Below are positions 7,448-58,116 of a stretch of DNA of 64,000 nucleotides, piece by piece. This DNA is from Octopus vulgaris (taxonomy: Eukaryota): positions 14,632,001 through 14,696,000 of the forward strand of contig OX597840.1 in the NCBI GenBank assembly GCA_951406725.2, read 5' to 3'. Both the position numbers and the translations under genes were made by a program. The notes beneath the pieces were generated by a model. It was given only the letters and a program-made list of their open reading frames with translations, was not told where the DNA came from and made no database searches. Each line of letters starts with the position of its first letter. Within the stretch, counting starts at the first letter, position 1.

Positions 7448-7986
7448 TACTATTGTAGGCACAAGGCCTGGAATTTGGAGGAGAGGGATAGTCGATTGTA
7501 TTGACCCCAGTACACAACTGGTACTTAATTTATCAACACTGTGAGGCTGAAAGACAATGTCGACCTCAGCAGAATTTGAACTCTGAATGTAAAAGCGGAC
7601 AAAATACTGCTAACAATTCTTTTCTACTCTAAATACAAGGCCTGAAATTTTTGGGGAGGCAGCCACTCAATTAGATCGACCATGGTATGCAACTGGTACT
7701 CAATTTATTGTCCCTGAAAGGATGAAAAGCAATGATGACTTCAGTGGAATTTGAACTCAGAATGTTAAGACAAACAAAATACTGCTAACAATTCTTTTCT
7801 ACTCTAAGCACAAGGCCTGAAATTTTGGGGGAGGGGCCAGTCGATTAAGTCAACCCCAGTACACAACTGGTACTTAATTTATCGTCCCTGAAAGGATGAA
7901 AGGCAAAGTCAACCGCAGTGGAATTTGAACTCTGAACGTAGAGACAGACAAAATACCGCTAACAACTCTGCCAGGTCACCACCTTC
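7448..7986 (-). mobile_element. Head-to-tail trimer of SINE family B
   Basis: Three successive acaaggcctg...gaatttgaactc...gctaaca units of ~180 bp. Confidence 0.85.
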
Positions 7987-20988: not shown

Positions 20989-21474
20989 GTTTGTATATCT
21001 ATGTATGTGTGTGTATATACATATATATATATATATGTATGTATGTGTGTGTAGCTTTATACTTATGTGTGTGTTTGTGTATACACACACAAATTCATAA
21101 ATATATACATACATACAGATATTTAAGATGGTATATTTACAAATATATGGATCTATATATATAGTATGTATGTATATATATAAATATATATATATATATA
21201 TGATCGTGTGTATACTTATATGTAGTTGGATCTATATAAATCTATGTATGTGTGTGCATGTCTGAATGCACATATATATATATCAATGCATGTGTACGTG
21301 AGACTCGTTTTATGGCCAAAACCTTGGGAGACAAGAAATATAAATTTATGAATTTGAAATGAATTAATGCGTGGAGTTATAGCAACACAAACAACAACAC
21401 AAGAGGTGGAGATATTGAAAGTGATGGTGGTCTGGTGGGGGCTTGGTGATGGTGGTCGACATGGTTGAGACTGT

Positions 21475-22300
21475 TGTTGTTGGTGGTAGTGGTTGAAGTG
21501 ATGATGGTGGGTGTAATGATGGGGGTGTTGCTGTTGTTGGTAGTGGTTGAAGTGGTGATGGTGGTGATGATGATGGCTGCGAGGATGGAGGTGTTGTTGT
21601 TGTTGGTGGTGGTAGTGGTGATGATGGTGGGTGTAATGATGGGGGTGTTGCTGTTGTTGGTAGTGGTTGAAGTGGTGATGGTGGTGATGATGATGGCTGC
21701 GAGGATGGAGGTGTTGTTGTTGTTGGTGGTGGTAGTGGTGATGATGGTGGGTGTAATGATGGGGGTGTTGCTGTTGTTGGTAGTGGTTGAAGTGGTGATG
21801 GTGGTGATGATGATGGCTGCAAGGATGGAGGTGTTGTTGTTGTTGGTGGTGGTAGTGGTGATGATGGTGGGTGTAATGATGGGGGTGTTGCTGTTGTTGT
21901 TGGTGGTTGAAGTGGTGATGGTGGTGATGATGATGGCTGCGAGGATGGAGGTGTTGTTGTTGTTGGTGGTGGTGGCGGTGGTGGTGGTGATGGTGGGTGT
22001 ATTGATGGGGGTGTTGCTATTGTTGGTAATGGTTGAAGTGGTGATGGTGGTGATGATGATGGCTGCGAGGATGGAGGTGTTGTTGTTGTTGGTGGTGGTA
22101 GTGGTGATGATGGTGGGTGTAATGATGGGGGTGTTGCTGTTGTTGTTGGTGGTTGAAGTGGTGATGGTGGTGATGATGATGGCTGCGAGGATGGAGGTGT
22201 TGTTGGTGGCGGTGGTGATGGTGGGTGTAATGATGGCGGTGTTGCTGTTGTTGTTGGTGGTTGAAGTGATGGTAGATATGATGCTGGCTGTAAGGATGGC
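21475..22300. repeat. 120-bp minisatellite built from GTG/ATG/TTG triplets (~6-7 copies)
   Basis: Sequence at 21541, 21661, 21781 and 21901 is near-identical (period 120). Confidence 0.95.
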
Positions 22301-22656
22301 GGTGTTGTTGTTGTTATTATTGTTGATGTTGCTGTTGGTGGTGATCGATATAACGATGGAGGTGGGATGTTGCTGTTGGTGTTATTTATAATAATTTCTC
22401 AGATTGATAACAGTAAACAATGAAAATAATCAAAACAAAAATTAGAGCAACAACAGACAGTGCAGTAACTGATGCACAAAAACAACAACAAAAGCAATAC
22501 CAACTTCATCATCCAGTATCATAACAACAGCGATAGCTACAATGGCAACAACCATAGTACACAACAACTGCAACAACAACAACAACAGCATAATCAAGCA
22601 CTACAAAAACACTAACAACAACAACAACAATCACATTTTCTTTCAACTGTTTTCAG

Positions 22657-31476: not shown

Positions 31477-33765
31477 CTTTTACATGTTACCAGAACTGTC
31501 TATGACTATGGTTCCACTTGGCTTGACAAGTCTTCTCAAGCACAGCAAACTGCCAAAGATCTCAGTCATTTGTTATTGCCTCGTGAGACCCAATATCCAA
31601 AGATCATGCTTCACCACCTCATTCTATGTCTTCCTGGGTCTACCTCTTCCACAGGTTCCCTCCGCAACTTGAGATCAGCACTTCTTTATGCAGCTGTTCT
31701 CATCCATATGCATCTCATGACCATACCAGTGCAGTCTTCTCTTTTGCATACCACATCTGATGCCTCTTATGCCTAACTTTTCCTTCAAGATACTTACACT
31801 TTGTCATACATGCACACTGACATTGCACACCCAGTGAAGCATACTAGCTCCATTTCTTTCAAGCCTTCATATGTCCTCTGCAGTCACATCCCATGTTTCA
31901 CTGCTGTGTTGCAAGGCTGTCCACACACAGGTATCATACAATTTGCCTTTCACTCTGAGGGAGAGGCCCTTAGTTACAAACAAAGGTAGAAACTCTGAAC
32001 TTTGCCCAGCGTATTCTTATTCTCGCAGCCAAACTCTCAAAGCGTCCACCTCCACTGCTGACTTGGTCACCGAGATAATAAAAACTATCAACTACTTCTA
32101 GGCATCACCACTGGCATTCAACAGAGTCTATTTTCTGTACATTACTTGTGTGTATTGTATCTGTATATTTGTCACACACAAAGCCTGTTTTCCCTGTTAA
32201 CCTTCCTCTGATATTGTTGCACCTCTTATGTATCCATAGCTTGCACTGGGTACACCTTATTGAGTTTCTACCTACGTCTTTTCTACATATCAAGCACGGC
32301 CATCTTCCTGAAGGGATTTGTGATTCACCTGCTTTCCTACTTGCTAAGACTACAGTCTTTATCCATTTATCTATCTATTTATCTATCTATCTATGAACTC
32401 GGAAAAATTTAAAACAGAGAGTTACTTACTTGCAAATAAATGTGTTAACATGTGACATTATTGACCGAGGTTACCATGGTCTTTTCCGTAGACTTTTCTT
32501 TCCATAGATAAACCTTTTCTGTTTCCTCCTTTACACTTTACATCATGACATTTCTGTGATACACGATCCCTATTGATCGTTTTATTTTTTATGATCCCTT
32601 TTGATCGAAAACCTACCCCCCCTTTTTTCTTCCCCAAACGAAAAGCTCTACTTTGTAATTTGTCCTCTCTGTGTTCAGCTCTGTATGGCTAATAAAGAAA
32701 TATATCTATCTATCTCTATGTATGTATGCATGTATGCATATATGCATGTATGTATGTATGTAAGTATGTATGTATGTATGTATATAATACATCTACAAGT
32801 GTGGTGTAAGACAAACAAAAGACAGTTACTACATTAGGATTTGAACCATGCATCTATAAGTTGCCAAGCGTATGGTTCACTAGTTGCACCAAATAACATT
32901 TCAACAGCTTTAGCTGTCGACATAGCTGATGTAAAGTGGTTTTTCATTGGATAATAATGGTAATGTCTAATCTCCTTTCATTTCCCCTGACAACTGCAGA
33001 CAATTTAGCAGCTGTACTTGGAGTCTTCTATGTATATGCATGCATGCATGTATGTATATATGTATTAATGTATATGCACACAAGCAGATATATTTAATAA
33101 CAGCTACACGTATACATAGAAACCCATGAACTCGCGCACACACACACACACACATATGCATTTATAATTCATAATTAAAAATAACTATTTATGTTATGAG
33201 TAATTACAGTTCATATTCTGAAGTTGCTCTTAGTCATAAACCTAGGAAACTTCCAGTGTAACACTGGAATCTGATGTAGTTAATTAAGGCAGCCTGTCTT
33301 TGTCTGGTGGCGAAGTGGTTATCAAGTTGTCTGTGATTCTCATGGGATGTGTGAAAAGACTTGGTAACAAAGACTTATTAAGTAAAAACCAAAATGTTTA
33401 TATTTGTTGTGTTGATAGTGAAATTTCTTCTGAGGCTACTTGGTATAATTAGATACATAGTCACCTGACAATTATTGTATTAATAGTCATCCAACTTCTT
33501 CAGTTGGTGACACTATGAGGTTCCAGAACTCTCATAGTGCTTTCAAGTGGCTAAAATGAGTTGATGAATTTCCAGCTCTATCAGCTAGCAGTAATCTGCT
33601 AATAGGATTTGTTGACCCTTAGACTGACCATTGGCTGAAGAAGCTCTTCTACCCAGACTGTGTCATCTAGTTTTGCCAAATGAAGGTCAGTCCACCAAAC
33701 TTCACATCTACCATGCTGCTCCTCGTGACTTCACTGTGGCCCTCACTCAAAGATTTTTCATCTCT

Positions 33766-33875
33766 TAATAAATAATAATAATAATAAATAGAGATACGGA
33801 TGAATTAAAGTTCAAAGATTTCTTATCTTGAGATCACTTCGTTTACGGACAGACTTGGCAAAAGGAATTCGGAAT
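33766..33875 (-). repeat. Inverted copy of the first ~110 bp of the 384-bp array unit
   Basis: Reverse complement of attccgaattccttttgcc...attatttattaa, abutting the array head-to-head. Confidence 0.95.
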
Positions 33876-35291
33876 TCTTGATTCCAAATTCCTTTTGCCA
33901 AGTCTGTCCGTAAACGAAGTGATCTCAAGATAAGAAATCTTTGAACTTTAATTCATCCGTATCTCTATTTATTATTATTATTATTTATTAATTATTATTA
34001 TTCTGATCCCCCTAGTCGCCACTCTGTTTACTATTTCAGCCTCGCCTCGTTTTTGCATATTCTGTATGATTCACTAGTTATCGTTATAGATATTTAAGAT
34101 CTATCTCCCTTATAGAAATTGGCTGCCGATTCTTCGCGGGGTTTTTCTCTTTTTTCTCTTCCCTTCTCTCCCCCTCTTTTTACATTGTCGTCTGTCTGGA
34201 CTCCTCTCTTCCTACCACCCGCCATGGCTATGCATACTTAAGCTAGTAAACTGCCTCATTCTTGATTCCGAATTCCTTTTGCCAAGTCTGTCCGTAAACG
34301 AAGTGATCTCAAGATAAGAAATCTTTGAACTTTAATTCATCCGTATCTCTATTTATTATTATTATTATTTATTAATTATTATTATTCTGATCCCCCTAGT
34401 CGCCACTCTGTTTACTATTTCAGCCTCGCCTCGTTTTTGCATATTCTGTATGATTCACTAGTTATCGTTATAGATATTTAAGATCTATCTCCCTTATAGA
34501 AATTGGCTGCCGATTATTCGCGGGGTTTTTCTCTTTTTTCTCTTCCCTTCTCTCCCCCTCTTTTTACATTGTCGTCTGTCTGGACTCCTCTCTTCCTACC
34601 ACCCGCCATGGCTATGCATACTTAAGCTAGTAAACTGCCTCATTCTTGATTCCGAATTCCTTTTGCCAAGTCTGTCCGTAAACGAAGTGATCTCAAGATA
34701 AGAAATCTTTGAACTTTAATTCATCCGTATCTCTATTTATTATTATTATTATTTATTAATTATTATTATTCTGATCCCCCTAGTCGCCACTCTGTTTACT
34801 ATTTCAGCCTCGCCTCGTTTTTGCATATTCTGTATAATTCACTAGTTATCGTTATAGATATTTAAGATCTATCTCCCTTATAGAAATTGGCTGCCGATTC
34901 TTCGCGGGGTTTTTCTCTTTTTTCTCTTCCCTTCTCTCCCCCTCTTTTTACATTGTCGTCTGTCTGGACTCCTCTCTTCCTACCACCCGCCATGGCTATG
35001 CATACTTAAGCTAGTAAACTGCCTCATTCTTGATTCCGAATTCCTTTTGCCAAGTCTGTCCGTAAACGAAGTGATCTCAAGATAAGAAATCTTTGAACTT
35101 TAATTCATCCGTATCTCTATTTATTATTATTATTATTTATTAATTATTATTATTCTGATCCCCCTAGTCGCCACTCTGTTTACTATTTCAGCCTCGCCTC
35201 GTTTTTGCATATTCTGTATAATTCACTAGTTATCGTTATAGATATTTAAGATCTATCTCCCTTATAGAAATTGGCTGCCGATTCTTCGCGG
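33874..35291 (+). repeat. Tandem array, 384-bp unit x ~3.7, near-identical
   Basis: attcttgattcc starts at 33874, 34258, 34642, 35026; I noticed only three variant positions; CpGs intact. Confidence 0.97.
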
Positions 35292-35368
35292 CGCGCCCGC
35301 CCTACCCACCCCCACCACCAATACCGGATATCTCTATTTTGCTCCAACTATACCGGATGTCGTTTTCT

Positions 35369-36191
35369 CCCACCACCATTATAGGTGTCTACTCTTTGAA
35401 CCCCCTCTTCAATACGCTATTTCACCATGCATTACCCCTCTCTCGATATCCTACGTTCTACTTGCCTAGAACCTGTCCTCTGGACCACCCCTCCCACTGG
35501 TGCTCACCCCTCCCACTGGTGCTCCCCTATATTTCTGCATCCCCCCACCACCATTATAGGTGTCTACTCTTTGAACCCCCTCTTCAATACGCTATTTCAC
35601 CATGCATTACCCCTCTCTCGATATCCTACGTTCTACTTGCCTAGAACCTGTCCTCTGAACCACCCCTCCCACTGGTGCTCCCCTATATTTCTGCACCCCC
35701 CCCACCACCATTATAGGTGTCTACTCTTTGAACCCCCTCTTCAATACGCTATTCACCATGCATTACCCCTCTCTCGATATCCTACGTTCTACTTGCCTAG
35801 AACCTGTCCTCTGAACCACCCCTCCCACTGGTGCCCACCCCTCCCACTGGTGCTCCCCTATATTTCTGCACCCCCCACCACCACCATTATAGGTGTCTAC
35901 TCTTTGAACCCCCTCTTCAATACGCTATTTCACCATGCATTACCCCTCTCTCGATATCCTACGTTCTACTTGCCTAGAACCTGTCCCCCGAACCACCCCT
36001 CCCACTGGTGCTCCCCTATATTTCTGCACCCCCCACCACCATTATAGGTGTCTACTCTTTGAACCCCCCTCTTCAATACGCTATTTCACCATGCATTACC
36101 CCTCTCTCGATATCCTACGTTCTACTTGACTAGTACCTGTCCTCTGAACCACCCCTCCCACTGGTGCTCCCCTATATTTCTGCACCCCCCC
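35369..36191 (+). repeat. C-rich tandem array of five units, long/short pattern A-B-A-B-B
   Basis: attataggtgtc at 35378, 35553, 35710, 35886, 36041 (spacings 175, 157, 176, 155); long units duplicate cacccctcccactggtgct. Confidence 0.95.
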
Positions 36192-36436
36192 ATAAAAAGC
36201 ACCATCCGAACGTGGCCGATGCCAGACCCCTCTGGCACCTGTGCAGGTGGCACGTAAAAAACACCCACTACACTCGCGGAGTGGTTGGCGTTAGGAAGGG
36301 CATCCAGCTGTAGAAACACTGCCAGACTAGACTGGAGCCTGGGGCAGTCCCGAGCTCCCCAGACCCCGGTCGAAACCGTCCAACCCGTGCTAGCGCGGAA
36401 AACGGACGTTAAACGATGATGATGATGATGATGATG
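36192..36436 (+). mobile_element. Young 5'-truncated RTE-tailed SINE fused to the arrays
   Basis: CpG-rich copy ending aacggacgttaaac(gat)n. Confidence 0.88.
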
Positions 36437-37678
36437 AAGGCTATCTCCTCTAAATACCCACTATTGGATGGCTGTTGACTCATACAAGTTCCTCCACACT
36501 TTGATGGGTTTTGTTTTCCATCTTGCAGGGTGTCCAAATCACTCTCCTCATCAAGTAAGTTTGGTGAGGCTGTTGGTTTACTCGCCAACAACCCAACCAT
36601 GTGACAGGGTCGTACTGGGTTACATGTCATCAGTAGCACTTGTTGAGAGTGACCTGACAAGGGATAGATTTATTGTTGATTGTCATGGCTGGATTTCATT
36701 TTTTTTTCTATTTTATGCCACACTTAGACCTGAACAACGACAACTACTATTGTAAGTGTAAAAACAACAACAAGAACAACTACAACAACAAGATTAATAA
36801 ATAACTGAGATGCCTGGCACCTTGCTGTACTCAAGAAACTCATGTTTCGTAGCAGAAGTGTTAAGGCTGCTCCGCTTAGTGAAGAGAATTGTCCTGCAAG
36901 AGTGGTGTACCAGTGCCATGTAAAAAGCACTTGTGCCGGTGCCATGTAAAAGGGCTCATGTGGTACCATGTTAATGCACCCAGCACACAACTTTAGTAAG
37001 GGCAGCCAGTTGTAGAAACCCAGCCAAATCAGACTGGAACCTGGTGCAGTTCTCCAGCCTACCAGCTCTGGCCTCAAAATCAAAATCACTGATGTGGCCA
37101 ATGAAAGTACCACCTGACTGGCACTCATGCCAGTGGGATGTTAAAAGCACATCCGAGTGTGATTGTTGCCAGGGCTGCTGATTGGCTCCCGTGCCGGTGG
37201 CATGTAAAAAGCACCATTTGAGCATGATCATTGCCAGTGTTGCCTTACTCGCACATGTGCCAGTGGCACATGAAATACATTTGAATGTGGTCAGTGCCAG
37301 TGCTGCCGGACTGGCTCCCATGCAGGTAGCATGTAAAAAACACCTTGTGAGCATGGTCGTTACCAGAACCACCTCACTGGCCCTTGTGGTGGTAGCATGT
37401 AAAAGCACCCACTACACTCTGGGAGTGGTTGGCGTTAGGAAGGGCATACAGCTGTAGAAACTTTGCCAGATCAGATTGGAGCCTGGTGCAGCCTTCTGAC
37501 TGCAAACCATCCGACCCATGCCAGCATGGAAAGTGGATGTTAAACGACAATGATGATGATGTATATACATATCTATCTATCTCTATATATATATGCATGC
37601 ATGTATGCATATATATATATATATATATATATATGCATACATATATATCATATGTATATGTATCTCACTCTCTCTCTG

Positions 37679-39446: not shown

Positions 39447-39995
39447 TATCAGGTCGCTAAGAATGAAATGTCTGACTTTGAACTGAAAATTTTATTTTAT
39501 TTTATCTCAACAAAAAGCAATGCAGTTAATCAAAGTATGAATGGTTGAATGTCCAAATCCAAGCTTCTCTGCTAGTTTCTCAACAGATACAATGGGATTT
39601 TGTTCCACCAGGGATTGCAGGACATCCTCATCAAATTCTACAGATCTTCCAGGACAAGGCTCGTCTTCTAGGCTATAGTTTCCAGCTTGGATTTTCTGGA
39701 ACCACCATTGATACTGGCTTATGCTTATTACGATCCCCATATACTGCATTAATATTCCAAGCACTTTCCGTTGCATTGTTACCTTTATTGAACTCATGAA
39801 GCAAAATATGTTGAATATGCTCCTTTGTCACTTTCATTATAGCTGTAAAAAAATAACTGTTAAAATCAAACTGCACCTTTCAAAACTTGCACTAAGAATA
39901 AGTACAAGGTAAAATTACTACCTGCTTTTATAGCAAGTTAATGCAGGTAATTTATCCTGCCTCCTCTGACTTTTAGTTCGTGCAATTGAAAAACA
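39447..39995 (-). mobile_element. Internally deleted mariner (Tc1/mariner) element
   Basis: MKVTKEHIQHILLHEFNKGNNATESAWNINAVYG and WFQKIQAGNYSLEDEPCPGRSVEFDEDVLQSLVEQNP...LAEKLG match Mos1/SETMAR-type HTH domains; frameshifted; no DDD domain; TA plus TIR-like tcaggtcgctaagaatgaaatg at 39447. Confidence 0.9.
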
Positions 39996-52939: not shown

Positions 52940-54553
52940 TGAGACAGATCAGTGAAGATTTTGTAGCCAAATAAATTGTGGAGAACGAAGTATTGAAGAT
53001 GAGAAACCTAATGCAGAAGAAGCTAGAAAGTTCTGGAGTAATATTTGGGATAAGCCAGTCAATTATAATGGAAATGCAGTATGGCTAAAGAAAGTGAGGG
53101 AAGAAGGAGTGAGTGATAAGCAGCCAGATCTAAGACTAACTAGTGCATTAATGAGTAAAGTGTTAGGAAAAATGCCAAATTGGAAAAGCCCAGGACCACA
53201 TTTAGTTCAAGAGTACGAGCTAAGAAATTTAGTAGTTTACATGGGGGCTGGGGGAACAACTTCAGGATTGCCTTAATTACTAACTACAGAAATGAAAACG
53301 AATATTGAGAAGGAGTACATCAGAAGGGTGAGGAAGCTAATGAAGTCAAAGTTAAATGGTCTGAATCTAGTGAACGCTGTAAGTACTTGAGCAGTATCAT
53401 TACTCAGCAGCTTTTGTAGGTTGAACAAAAACTGAATTAGCAAAGCTACACAGAAGAACTAGGAAGAAATTCAATATGAATGGAGGACTCCTCCCAAGGG
53501 CAGGAGTAGCAAGATGATACCTACATAGAAAGGAAGGGGGAAGAGGGTTAATATCAGTAGAAGACTGCGTGGAGTTAGCTAGAGGAGATATAGACTCCTA
53601 TGTAGGTAATAGGGAAGAAAGTTTATTAAGAGCTGCTAGAGTCATAGCATGACATAGGGAAACCGGAAACCCAAACAAAATTAAAAACCAGAAAAAAGAA
53701 CAGAAATTATCTGACTGTTTGGAGAAGGTGTTGCATGGTAGATTCCCTAAGATAGTTGCAGCAAATAGTAGTAGTGAGGCATGGTTATGGTTGCAGAAAG
53801 GAAAACTGAAAAGAGAGACAGAAAGTTTGTTAGCAGCAGCACAAGATCAAGCATTAAGAACTAATTGGATAAAAGTGAAGTTAGACAAAAACTAAGTAGA
53901 TTCTCAATGTAGGTTATGTAAATCAAAAGAGGAAAGCATTACCCATATAGTAAGTGAATGGAGCATGCTGGCACAGAGAGAATACAAAGAAAGATATGAC
54001 AATCTAGAGAGGGTAATCCACTGGGAGTTATGAAGAAAGCTAGGATTTGAACATACTAATAAATGGTATGAACAGGAACCTGGTAAAGCACTAGAAAGTA
54101 ATAAATACAAGATATTGTGGGACGTTAACATTCAATAGAAGCTAGAAGGCCTGGTTTGGTAGTAGTAGATAAAGAGAATAGAAAATGCCAAATAATTGAC
54201 TTTACAGTCCTAAATGATGAAAAAAATCAATATGAGAAGTATAGAAAAATAGCCAAGTGCCAGGACCTAGCCATTGAATTACAGAGACTTTGGAAAGTGT
54301 GGGTAAAATGTATTCCAGTAGTTGTTGGTGCATTGAGTACTATCCCTAAAGATCTGAACAGATGGATAGAGGAAATAGGCATAAAACCCAGTTTAGTACA
54401 GCTCCGGAAAACAGTGTTATTAAAGAGAGCTGGGATATTTACGAGGGTTCTGGCATCTAAGGCTACATGTTGTAGCCTGATGTTAGGATATTTTCTTCTC
54501 CAACAGTTTAATCTCTTGTATGTGTATGAAAATAATAATAATAATAATAATAA
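52940..54553 (+). mobile_element. Decayed R4/Dong-clade non-LTR retrotransposon (RLE endonuclease), RT core deleted
   Basis: KMPNWKSPGP, KEYIRRVRKLMKSKLNG, GGRGLISVED, ETESLLAAAQDQALRTN, CRLCKSKEESITHIVS, ILWD, IIDF, PVVVGALSTIPK; many stops; (AAT)n tail. Confidence 0.92.
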
Positions 54554-54760
54554 TCATGGACTCTAGGAAATATTCTGATCAATACCACAGAGTTGCTTGT
54601 CAGTTGCTTGACCATAACCAGTTGGGCATGTCCCTTAGTGGCTGACGATATGTGCATCTCTAATCATAAGCAGAAGTAGTGGGGGAGCATGATGGGTATA
54701 CTCGGCTTTGTGTATTTTACCCCAGTGTCACTTTGATGGCATGCGCTGCCCTCTCACTTG

Positions 54761-55776: not shown

Positions 55777-56018
55777 CGGTTTTTATTTCCTTTACAAATC
55801 AGGGTACACTAATGTCATCTACATCTGGTCTTTATATATGTATATTGTGAGAATCTAGAGTGAATCATTATCTTTTACTGTCCATTTCCCATCATGGTAT
55901 GGGTTGCTCTCTCTCTCTCTCTCTCTCTCTTTATAAGCAAATTTGTTTTTGAAAGGGCACCTAAATATGAAAAAGTTGTAATTGTTTAAAATAAATTTAT
56001 TTACTTATATACCGAACT

Positions 56019-57318
56019 AGTTTCAACAATACTTTTTGTTTATCGATGGTAAAAATTTAGAACTATGAATTAGAAAAACATGTTTCAAATTTTCAATGTT
56101 GACAAATTTAAATGTTCATAAAAAGACAAATTTAGAATTATGAATTACAAAAACATGTTAAAAAATTTCGGTGTTGACAAGTTTAAATATTCATAAAAAG
56201 ACAAATTTAGAATTATGAATTAGAAAAACATGTTAAAAAATTTCGGTGTTGACAAGTTTAAATGTTCATAACAGTCAATAATATTAAAACTGTGCATCAA
56301 TTTGTTTGAATGTACAAAGCTCATTAGTGTTAGTGGTGATTGACAAGAAATGAATATCCTCAAAGTTTCAGTCATACTGAGTTAAGAGGGAAAAAACAAG
56401 GGAAAAAGGAAGATAGTGAAAAAAAAAGGGATTTGGTTTACAATTTCTCTGATCCTCATTCCGTTGTATGTAGGAACTTTCGCTTGTAACTGTGTTTTGG
56501 AATCCGGTCTATTCATAATTTTTTCAACAAGTGGATCTGATTTTTGGTTTGTTAAAATACTGGTGACGTCTTGTTTTTCCGGGCTTCCCTGTGGAGAATG
56601 GTTATCTGTCATTCCAGTTGGTTGATTTTCTTAAAGGGTCATTTTGTTGTATTTGCTGAAGTTCAGTTTTGATTGGTCTAGAGTTAGGTGATGTCAGCAA
56701 CTGGTGTTTGTAAAATTTTATTGGGCTAGAAATAGGTGACATCGGCAACTGATGTTCATATGGTGTTATTGTATGGCGATTTGGAGTTGTGGTTTCAAAA
56801 CCTAGGTAGAAGACTGTTACTAAAGTTTTAAAATTGTTTGTTGTATTTTTGTGGAGAAATTGAGTCTTTTTTCCCTTTTTCTCTTTAGTATTTTTTTCTT
56901 CTTTCTAAAGGTTATTGGCTGTGGTTTATATTTTTTAATGAGTATGCTTTCCTGATTTAAACAGAATTGGGTTGAAGTGTTTCCGGTGCATTAATTGAGA
57001 GGGAAGATTTGATACTTCAGGTTTATGCTTTCTGGGCATTGGTCTAGGTATTTGCTTACAGGAATTTTCATAGTCCTGGAATTGTTGCCTGTGCACTGTT
57101 AATCTGTCCCTCAAGGTTAAACTAGTTTGATCTATGTAGTCTCCACTACACCCTCCACATTTGAGAACGTAGATTAAGTTCCTCGAAGCACAGGTGAAAT
57201 GATTTCTTATGGTAAAAGTTTGACCTGACTTAAATTTGTATGTTGGGCCAGATACATGTTTTTCTAATTCATAATTCTTAATTTTTACCATTGATAAACA
57301 AAAAGTATTGTTGAAACT
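56019..57318 (-). mobile_element. 5'-truncated Penelope-like element with GIY-YIG endonuclease fragment and inverted 5' pLTR piece
   Basis: FTCASRNLIYVLKCGGCSGDYIDQTSLTLRDRLTVHRQQ (GIY-YIG with CxxC insert); 56019-56083 is inverted at 57254-57318; 75-bp tandem x3 at 56053-56270. Confidence 0.9.
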
Positions 57319-58116
57319 TGCCTATATTTTTTTCCTGCATGGAAATACACCCCCTCTTTTGTTATATATATATATATATATACATGGATGGGTGGATTAA
57401 ACTGTTTTGATCCATATATGTAACTCACAATAAATTTGTTGAGTGCCCCTCTTTCATTTGTCCACTCACTCGTATATATATGTGTGTGTGTGTGTGTGTG
57501 TATGTGTGTATTATTTTGAATTATTTAATAACAGCTGGATTTGTTTCCATGCAAGTTTTCTAAGCTTGTTAGATGAACCTAACTCATCAGCCTTGCAGAA
57601 CTGAATGAAGGGAAGTCCAAGATAGTTTCTGGGTATTGGACTGCTGCTGGTGACTTGAGGTGACATGGTGTTGCCAGTTTGGCAGTAACATCATTACCAT
57701 TCAGGATTAGTCAAATCATGAGCTGGGACAGGATTTTGGTGGTGACACCTTGTCTCAAGAAATGGGGTTGGTTTGCTAGGGACAGCAGCACATTGACATG
57801 TGTGTGTGCATGCATGTATGTGTATGCTTAGTGTGTAAGTACGTGTGTCTGCTATGTGTGTGTGTGTGCATGTATGTGAGAGTTTGTGCATGTGTATGCA
57901 TAACTTTGCATGTATTAGCAACATCAGTTTGTTGGTGTATGTTTACGTGTGTATACCTAATGAGCACAGTTATTAGTTAATCTCATTACTTAATATCTTG
58001 CATGAAACCGATTGGTAAATTCTGCTCTATAATACTGTATACTTTGATTAATATATAAACCATGTAATTTGCACCATTGGTGACGTCCTCTACCAATATA
58101 TGCATGTGTGTGTGAG

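Follow-up and report, generated by a model that had tools for sequence, protein, structure and literature searches.

Architecture of the Insertion

The window, i.e., the complete 64-kb stretch of DNA that was analyzed, carries a composite insertion of 2.7 kb, whose features are listed in Table 1. In order, it consists of a 111-bp fold-back cap, 3.7 copies of a 384-bp unit (array 1), a 77-bp linker, five units of 155-176 bp (array 2), a 222-bp tail, and a terminal (GAT)7. An earlier reading made from the sequence alone (the sequence-only reading) had described four directly adjoining modules starting with an inverted cap at 33766 and had seen no TSD. We likewise found the modules to adjoin without spacer and confirmed the cap, which measures 111 bp and starts at 33765. 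No TSD was found either, as the longest word common to both junctions comprises 6 nt and is out of register. According to blastn, the 384-bp unit, the 156-bp unit and the linker do not occur again in the 64-kb window.

TABLE 1. Positions of the modules of the insertion and of its flanks in the window.
Feature	Position	Strand	Remarks
Left flank	33200..33764	-	CpG-decayed, CpG o/e 0.09
Inverted cap, 111 bp	33765..33875	-	Reverse complement of 384-unit positions 8-118; outer end within (TTA)n tract
Fold-back loop, 5 nt	33876..33880	.	Closed by self-complementary AT
Array 1, 3.7 x 384 bp, three variable sites	33874..35291	+	Tandem-repeat family, also in three other runs
7-nt microhomology TTCGCGG	35285..35291	+	384-unit end vs. 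usual upstream edge of linker family
Linker	35292..35368	+	C-rich ~30-nt subrepeats related to 156-unit start; head of 156 family
Array 2, five heterogeneous units of 155-176 bp	35369..36192	+	Units 1 and 3 each contain an internal duplication of 19 bp
LINE-type 3' tail, 5'-truncated, 222 bp	36193..36414	+	CpG-intact
Two-helix 3' stem-loop	36377..36408	+	Inner helix stays paired in this copy despite A-U -> G-C and U-A -> U-G
Terminal microsatellite (GAT)7G	36415..36436	+	
Right flank	36437..36720	-	CpG-decayed; possible 5' part of same old LINE as left flank

The 384-bp Array and the Fold-Back Cap

The copies of array 1 are 99% alike. They vary at three sites, of which one shows a CpG-type G>A change only in copy 1, the second reads G,G,A,A, and the third is a private change in copy 2. 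A-to-I editing was considered as origin of the copy variants and rejected because their directions are mixed. Neither a long reading frame nor a recognisable domain was seen by eye in the six frames of the 384-bp unit, and a blastn comparison with the Penelope-like relic at 56-57 kb gave no match. RNA folding of the unit yielded z-scores of 1.33 and -0.14, indicating no stable fold. On its minus strand (33990-34190), we noticed by eye an LTR-like TGT...ACA segment with CCAAT, TATAA, and AGTAAA. This segment is followed by a TGGCGAC-type PBS-like motif that is present only in the four 384-bp units and that we take to resemble a tRNA-Ser PBS. With respect to a TRIM or LTR reading of the unit, there was no adjacent PPT and no step in contig depth at the borders of the TGT...ACA segment. 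A Helitron-type join between CTAG and TC within the unit was rejected, since it lacks an upstream hairpin.

Compared as reverse complement with unit positions 8-118, the cap is 100% identical to copies 2-4 and matches copy 1 at 110 of 111 positions. It is separated from its partner arm by a 5-nt loop with a 2-nt AT overlap, and the single difference to copy 1 is a G in the cap and a CpG-type A in the copy. This difference indicates that both arms have aged in place and argues against an artefact caused by a palindromic read. The inner end of the cap lies 5 nt from its own template, whereas the chance that a twin-priming join on a 384-periodic RNA falls that close is about 4% (15/384, our own arithmetic), which favors snap-back. 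The cap fits a snapped-back cDNA rather than a Penelope end. Below-threshold Rfam matches of miRNA models to the fold-back hairpin and to AT repeats reflected shape only and were discarded.

The perfect inverted arm and the near-identical arrays could in principle stem from an assembly or library chimera, namely a palindromic read plus collapsed repeats, and the structure was read here from assembled sequence. We consider this extremely unlikely, because the cap differs by one CpG-type change from the adjacent arm while it matches the distal copies, because the copies carry distinct variants, and because a considerable part of the sequence recurs in other runs (see below).

The 156-bp Array and the Linker

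The units of array 2 measure 175, 157, 176, 155, and 156 bp in this order, with long and short units alternating and a higher-order period of 333 bp. Pairwise, they differ by 0-4 substitutions and 1-5 indels. The z-scores of the RNA fold were -2.04 and -1.05, and the plus strand reached only -17.8 kcal/mol. The heterogeneity of these units, compared to only three variable sites and 1/50 lost CpG cells in the 384-bp copies, suggests that array 2 was probably copied from a genomic array. As laps of one circle would be identical and the 156-bp units differ, a linear copy of such an array probably served as template, and the G,G,A,A site in array 1 points, more weakly, in the same direction. The idea that a single RNA circle had been copied was not supported, in view of the alternating units (175/157/176/155) and the 384-bp site reading G,G,A,A.

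The linker, with its subrepeats, is the head of the 156-bp family. Since it belongs to this family and the join between the two is bridged in a contig of another organism (see below), at most two joins have to be explained instead of three. The 384/linker join lies on TTCGCGG, a 7-nt microhomology between the two families as found by comparing upstream sequences by eye, and the 156/tail join shows an overlap of only 1 nt.

The LINE-Type Tail

Sequences similar to the tail, with 72-89% identity and a bit score of at least 60, occur in 12 further stretches of the window, and we presume that the tail belongs to the RTE type. None of its copies in the window was seen running into an RT frame. The 3' stem-loop is 93% paired over nine copies, and two of the ten pairs are changed on both sides. 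Its covariation score was reached by 6 of 500 shuffles, in a set of related sequences in which the focal changes also fall at CpG positions. The 3' end of the tail resembles a LINE recognition tail in its behavior, with weak support from the stem-loop. The occurrence of the tail in 12 window stretches, its (GAT)n end and the stem-loop define a polarity that supports target-primed insertion. The tail had previously been labeled a SINE. This label was not supported, as no tRNA head was found: ARAGORN detected 0 tRNA genes, and comparison with box patterns gave one A-box-like match in the tail and no B box. According to the excerpt of PMC13282606, O. vulgaris harbors active RTE, Dong-R4, and Penelope elements as well as many unclassified SINE families.

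Age of the Modules and Nature of the Flanks

CpG observed/expected ratios were 1.13 for array 1, 0.83 for the tail and only 0.44 for array 2, compared to 0.36 for the window. In array 1, one of 50 CpG cells was lost. The tail contains 17 CpGs, of which 2-9 are kept in five other copies, a count that is biased because the sites were picked from the focal copy. The sequence-only reading, in which the modules keep their CpGs while the neighboring repeats have decayed, was thus borne out, with the ratio of array 2 as the lowest. By their CpGs, all modules are equally young.

Motifs seen by eye in the left flank may represent a relic of a LINE endonuclease. Three frames of this flank were compared with Pfam and one of them with a protein collection, all without match, and a 77-aa frame in the right flank gave neither a homologue nor a phmmer match. 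The proposal of a single old LINE 5' relic split between the two flanks is plausible by eye and unsupported by Pfam, the two homologue searches and phmmer. The right flank also contains a CTGATGA hammerhead-core word at position 36633 (minus strand), with no GAAA partner within 60 nt.

Occurrence of the Unit Families in Sequencing Runs

Part of the words of region 33000-37000 was present in 20 of the 24 listed runs, and half or more in seven of them, which further argues against a chimera. No RNA run was among the listed holders of these words. Eight runs that were guessed to be RNA contained 0.24-0.26 of the words, and two more runs guessed to be RNA contained 0.00; apart from X12, they carry no weight as evidence. 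Contigs of the runs X3, X9, and X12 as well as the raw run X22 were compared with region 34908-35560, which comprises one 384-bp unit, the linker and one 156-bp unit. In X3, 1,647 contigs aligned to this region, in X9 191. The 384-bp and the 156-bp units were found as independent tandem families in contigs of these three runs, which carry three organism labels. Among the matches listed, head-to-tail joints were present in X12, X3, and X9 for the 384-bp unit and in X12 and X3 for the 156-bp unit. The unit motifs gave 0 matches in metagenome contigs, viral contigs, and bacterial and archaeal genomes.

The linker-156 join is spanned by record 7 of X3 (35311-35404) with 5 differences in 93 nt, and record 4 of X12 contains the linker motif twice, 30 nt apart. 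In X9 (seven contigs) and X12, loose ends occur before 35305, with different sequence upstream of the linker. By eye, this upstream sequence shares TTCGCGG with the end of the 384-bp unit, followed by a CpG-decayed linker start. Bin arithmetic for 35292-35303 implied cover in X3 and about zero in X12 and X9, bearing in mind that contigs show presence and not absence. A bridge between the 384-bp unit and the linker was not present among the 25 contig pieces listed (1,847 more are unlisted). The summed contig depths of the modules in X3 have a ratio of about 2:1:5, which resembles the locus, although such depths are no copy numbers. Both X3 and X9 show loose ends at 35237, which, together with an X9 contig of 582 nt, point to related, longer versions of the 384-bp family (35205-35270).

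The raw WGS run X22 (1,934 Mb), which has the organism label of X1, the best-matching run, contained two reads at 90-95% identity and left 28 of the 30 bins without depth. From the locus alone, a depth of about 1.4-4.4 would be expected for genomes of 2.3-5 Gb, in a run without positive control. A mislabel, a filter or a true absence might account for this blank, which also counts in favor of a chimera.

In X12, a run guessed to be RNA, the 384-bp unit formed a single self-closing unitig of 405 nt with a 375-nt cycle, containing no other letters and no branch to the linker. The monomer in the window is 9 nt longer than this cycle, the difference being located in a pyrimidine tract (34908-34918) in which X3 showed at least seven length variants.

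The isolated cycle, as well as unit sizes within the range of retrozymes, could point to circular RNAs of a retrozyme-like or Penelope-mobilised kind, onto which the RT would have jumped from the tail RNA to copy them in a rolling-circle mode. The head-to-head cap ending in a TTA tract also resembles an inverted pLTR as described in the excerpt of PMC8969392. We nevertheless regard this origin as very unlikely. A homogeneous DNA array equally yields a self-closing unitig, the window monomer and the cycle differ in length, and the copies are non-identical, as evident from the G,G,A,A site and the heterogeneous 156-bp units. The 384-bp unit lacks a stable fold (see above). No hammerhead or other Rfam ribozyme was detected on either strand, no CTGANGA core is present inside the insertion on both strands, and one-mismatch matches to the hammerhead core on wrapped units did not look hammerhead-like by eye. 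Furthermore, none of the five joints listed from the three contig sets changed strand, although contigs drop rare forms. The retrozyme or Penelope character suggested earlier thus found no support, neither from a hammerhead nor from a strand-changing joint among those listed in the three contig sets.

Origin of the Insertion

We favor, with a probability of roughly 55%, the reading that an RTE-like LINE enzyme inserted a linear read-through RNA in one target-primed event, the modules being likely already joined in the donor. According to this model, an older element composed of linker and 156-bp repeats would have gained a LINE 3' tail and, on its 5' side, the 384-bp array via TTCGCGG. The RT would have bound the 3' stem-loop and (GAT)n and then copied about 2.56 kb leftwards. 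The cDNA may have stopped within the 384-bp array, where its terminal AT snapped back across a loop of 5 nt and primed the synthesis of 111 nt from its own strand, before the snapped-back end was joined to the target without TSD.

The equal age of the modules and their common direction into the tail suggest one TPRT event. The conserved 3' stem-loop and the 7-nt microhomology at the 384/linker join make both RT-driven insertion and RT-driven chimerism plausible. The bridge between linker and 156-bp unit and the implied cover of 35292-35303 in X3 are compatible with a pre-existing 384-linker join in that run. Of the single-event RT insertion model of the sequence-only reading, the youth, the LINE-type 3' end and the probably single RT-mediated event were retained, with the presence of the families elsewhere and the microhomology as support; the RNA circle was not supported.

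Several observations argue against the favored model. The 384-linker join was unbridged among the listed contigs and the linker is preceded otherwise in X9 and X12, which speaks against a pre-assembled donor, as does the self-closing 375-nt unitig of X12, which fits long pure arrays or circles and not short composite arrays. The lack of a TSD, usual after clean TPRT, argues against target-primed insertion, and the nearly blank X22 and the weak support for the stem-loop also count against the model.

It is possible, but rather unlikely, that the modules were joined during insertion, by the same RT in the same event switching once or twice from the LINE/SINE tail RNA onto linear multimeric RNAs, first to linker and 156-bp array and then to the 384-bp array at TTCGCGG. 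This corresponds to the earlier model minus the circles. It agrees with the 7-nt microhomology, with the other sequence upstream of the linker in X9 (seven contigs) and X12, and with the self-closure of both units in X12 without composite joins, and template switching has been proposed as a route of module exchange in mollusc SINEs (excerpt of PMC4758252). However, two switches plus a snap-back would be required in one event, the 156/tail join offers merely 1 nt of overlap, and the depth implied for 35292-35303 in X3 is compatible with an older join.

Assembly at the DNA level is unlikely. In this case, a young LINE tail would have been inserted first or alongside, the arrays would have been added via break repair, recombination or extrachromosomal tandem DNA, and the fold-back would be a polymerase snap-back at a DNA end. 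The missing TSD, the microhomology joins and the abundance of both units as tandem DNA in other runs are in line with this scenario, and the excerpt of 10.1101/2024.12.14.628481 describes inversions that derive from hairpins at DNA ends cut by L1. Four equally young modules in a 5'-3' order as in one transcript, ending exactly in the tail, argue against it.

Comparison with Known Mobile Elements

The following comparisons refer to excerpts of the cited sources. SVA/LAVA elements with their VNTR composites and SVA 5' transductions (PMC12593883) are similar in being non-autonomous, CpG-rich composites of repeat modules of 1.5-3 kb with an internal tandem array of variable length, mobilised by a LINE via TPRT, which for the insertion described here is presumed. 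A composite with an internal tandem array is present in the insertion. In contrast to SVA, the insertion ends in a LINE-type stem-loop with (GAT)n instead of poly-A, contains two unrelated arrays, and lacks a TSD. The likeness is one of architecture, no sequence relation being expected, and the insertion is known here as one copy.

RTE-tailed non-autonomous elements and chimeric SINEs (PMC5786205, PMC4758252) share the LINE-derived 3' end with microsatellite, and their modules are exchanged via template switch or recombination. The insertion has the LINE-type tail with stem-loop and the terminal microsatellite expected of an RTE-mobilised element, but no TSD. It differs by the absence of a tRNA head and of a recognised LINE 5' part, and by its cargo, which comprises tandem arrays of 2.3 kb in total. 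Judged by these features, it belongs neither to SVA nor to the RTE-tailed elements.

L1 insertions with 5' inversion or fold-back (PMC10191854) also carry a short inverted segment at the 5' junction. In that study, the fold-backs (four events, 0.4%) are duplications of target DNA located upstream, and twin priming is given as the cause of the internal inversions (29.5%). In the insertion, by contrast, its own 5' end is folded over 5 nt (compare PMC10191854).

Non-LTR retrozymes and Penelope pLTR derivatives (PMC7761336; 10.64898/2026.07.22.740005) have tandem units of 150-400 bp and an inverted 5' segment. The units of the insertion fall within the retrozyme range of about 150-400 bp, and the cap corresponds to the inverted 5' segment of Penelope in form only. 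No Penelope pLTR with hammerhead, no RT/GIY-YIG remnant and no Penelope 3' end were found in the insertion, which ends in the (GAT)n tail. It further differs from these elements by the lack of a hammerhead or stable fold, by its heterogeneous units and by its foreign LINE tail.

The Cg_HINE Helentrons of oyster (PMC7492417) are likewise mobile carriers of short dispersed satellite-like arrays, sometimes of two. In contrast to them, the insertion shows no subTIR, IR or GTCY left module and no palindromic right module, and its 3' end is a retro-tail. The best inverted repeat in 34908-35560 matched at 9/10 nt within the 384-bp unit, and none framed the array.

The composite is undescribed in the literature searched; its parent families may be catalogued in Repbase, Dfam or the Zenodo library of PMC13282606. 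Each step has a precedent; what is unusual is that a LINE-type tail occurs together with two unrelated satellite-like arrays and a self-primed cap. Should the composite prove to be a family, it would be an invertebrate counterpart of SVA, in which a LINE tail spreads two satellite-like arrays. Dispersed tandem arrays could then arise by retrotransposition as well as by the Helentron route of oyster, and polymorphic copies would serve as markers of RTE-like activity that is still ongoing. As a single case, it would be an instructive and well-preserved chimeric retro-insertion whose 5' end is a clean snap-back, built from known mechanisms. One-step copying from a single long RNA would let jumping genes spread satellite-like arrays. 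It is unlikely that the units exist as abundant multimeric or circular RNAs without ribozyme, which are routinely hijacked behind the LINE RT's own tail and found a satellite-seeding family of composite retrotransposons in an invertebrate.

Other Repeats in the Window

Further repeats were observed in the window. Decayed ORF pieces at 52956-54566 (plus strand) end in (AAT)n and had no relevant Pfam match; we take them to resemble the C-terminus of a Dong/R4 LINE. At 56000-57321 (minus strand), an ORF end is followed by 48-bp and 75-bp tandem repeats. It was blank in Pfam and is presumably the GIY-YIG-like end of a Penelope (Neptune-like) relic. A mariner-like transposase fragment at 39507-39827 (minus strand) gave weak HTH matches only. 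Two additional tandem repeats were noticed, a SINE-like 175-bp unit in 2.9 decayed copies at 7459-7969, and a 120-bp array at 21472-22315 with seven copies of 91% identity, a strong G skew and GTT/GAT/GGT triplets.
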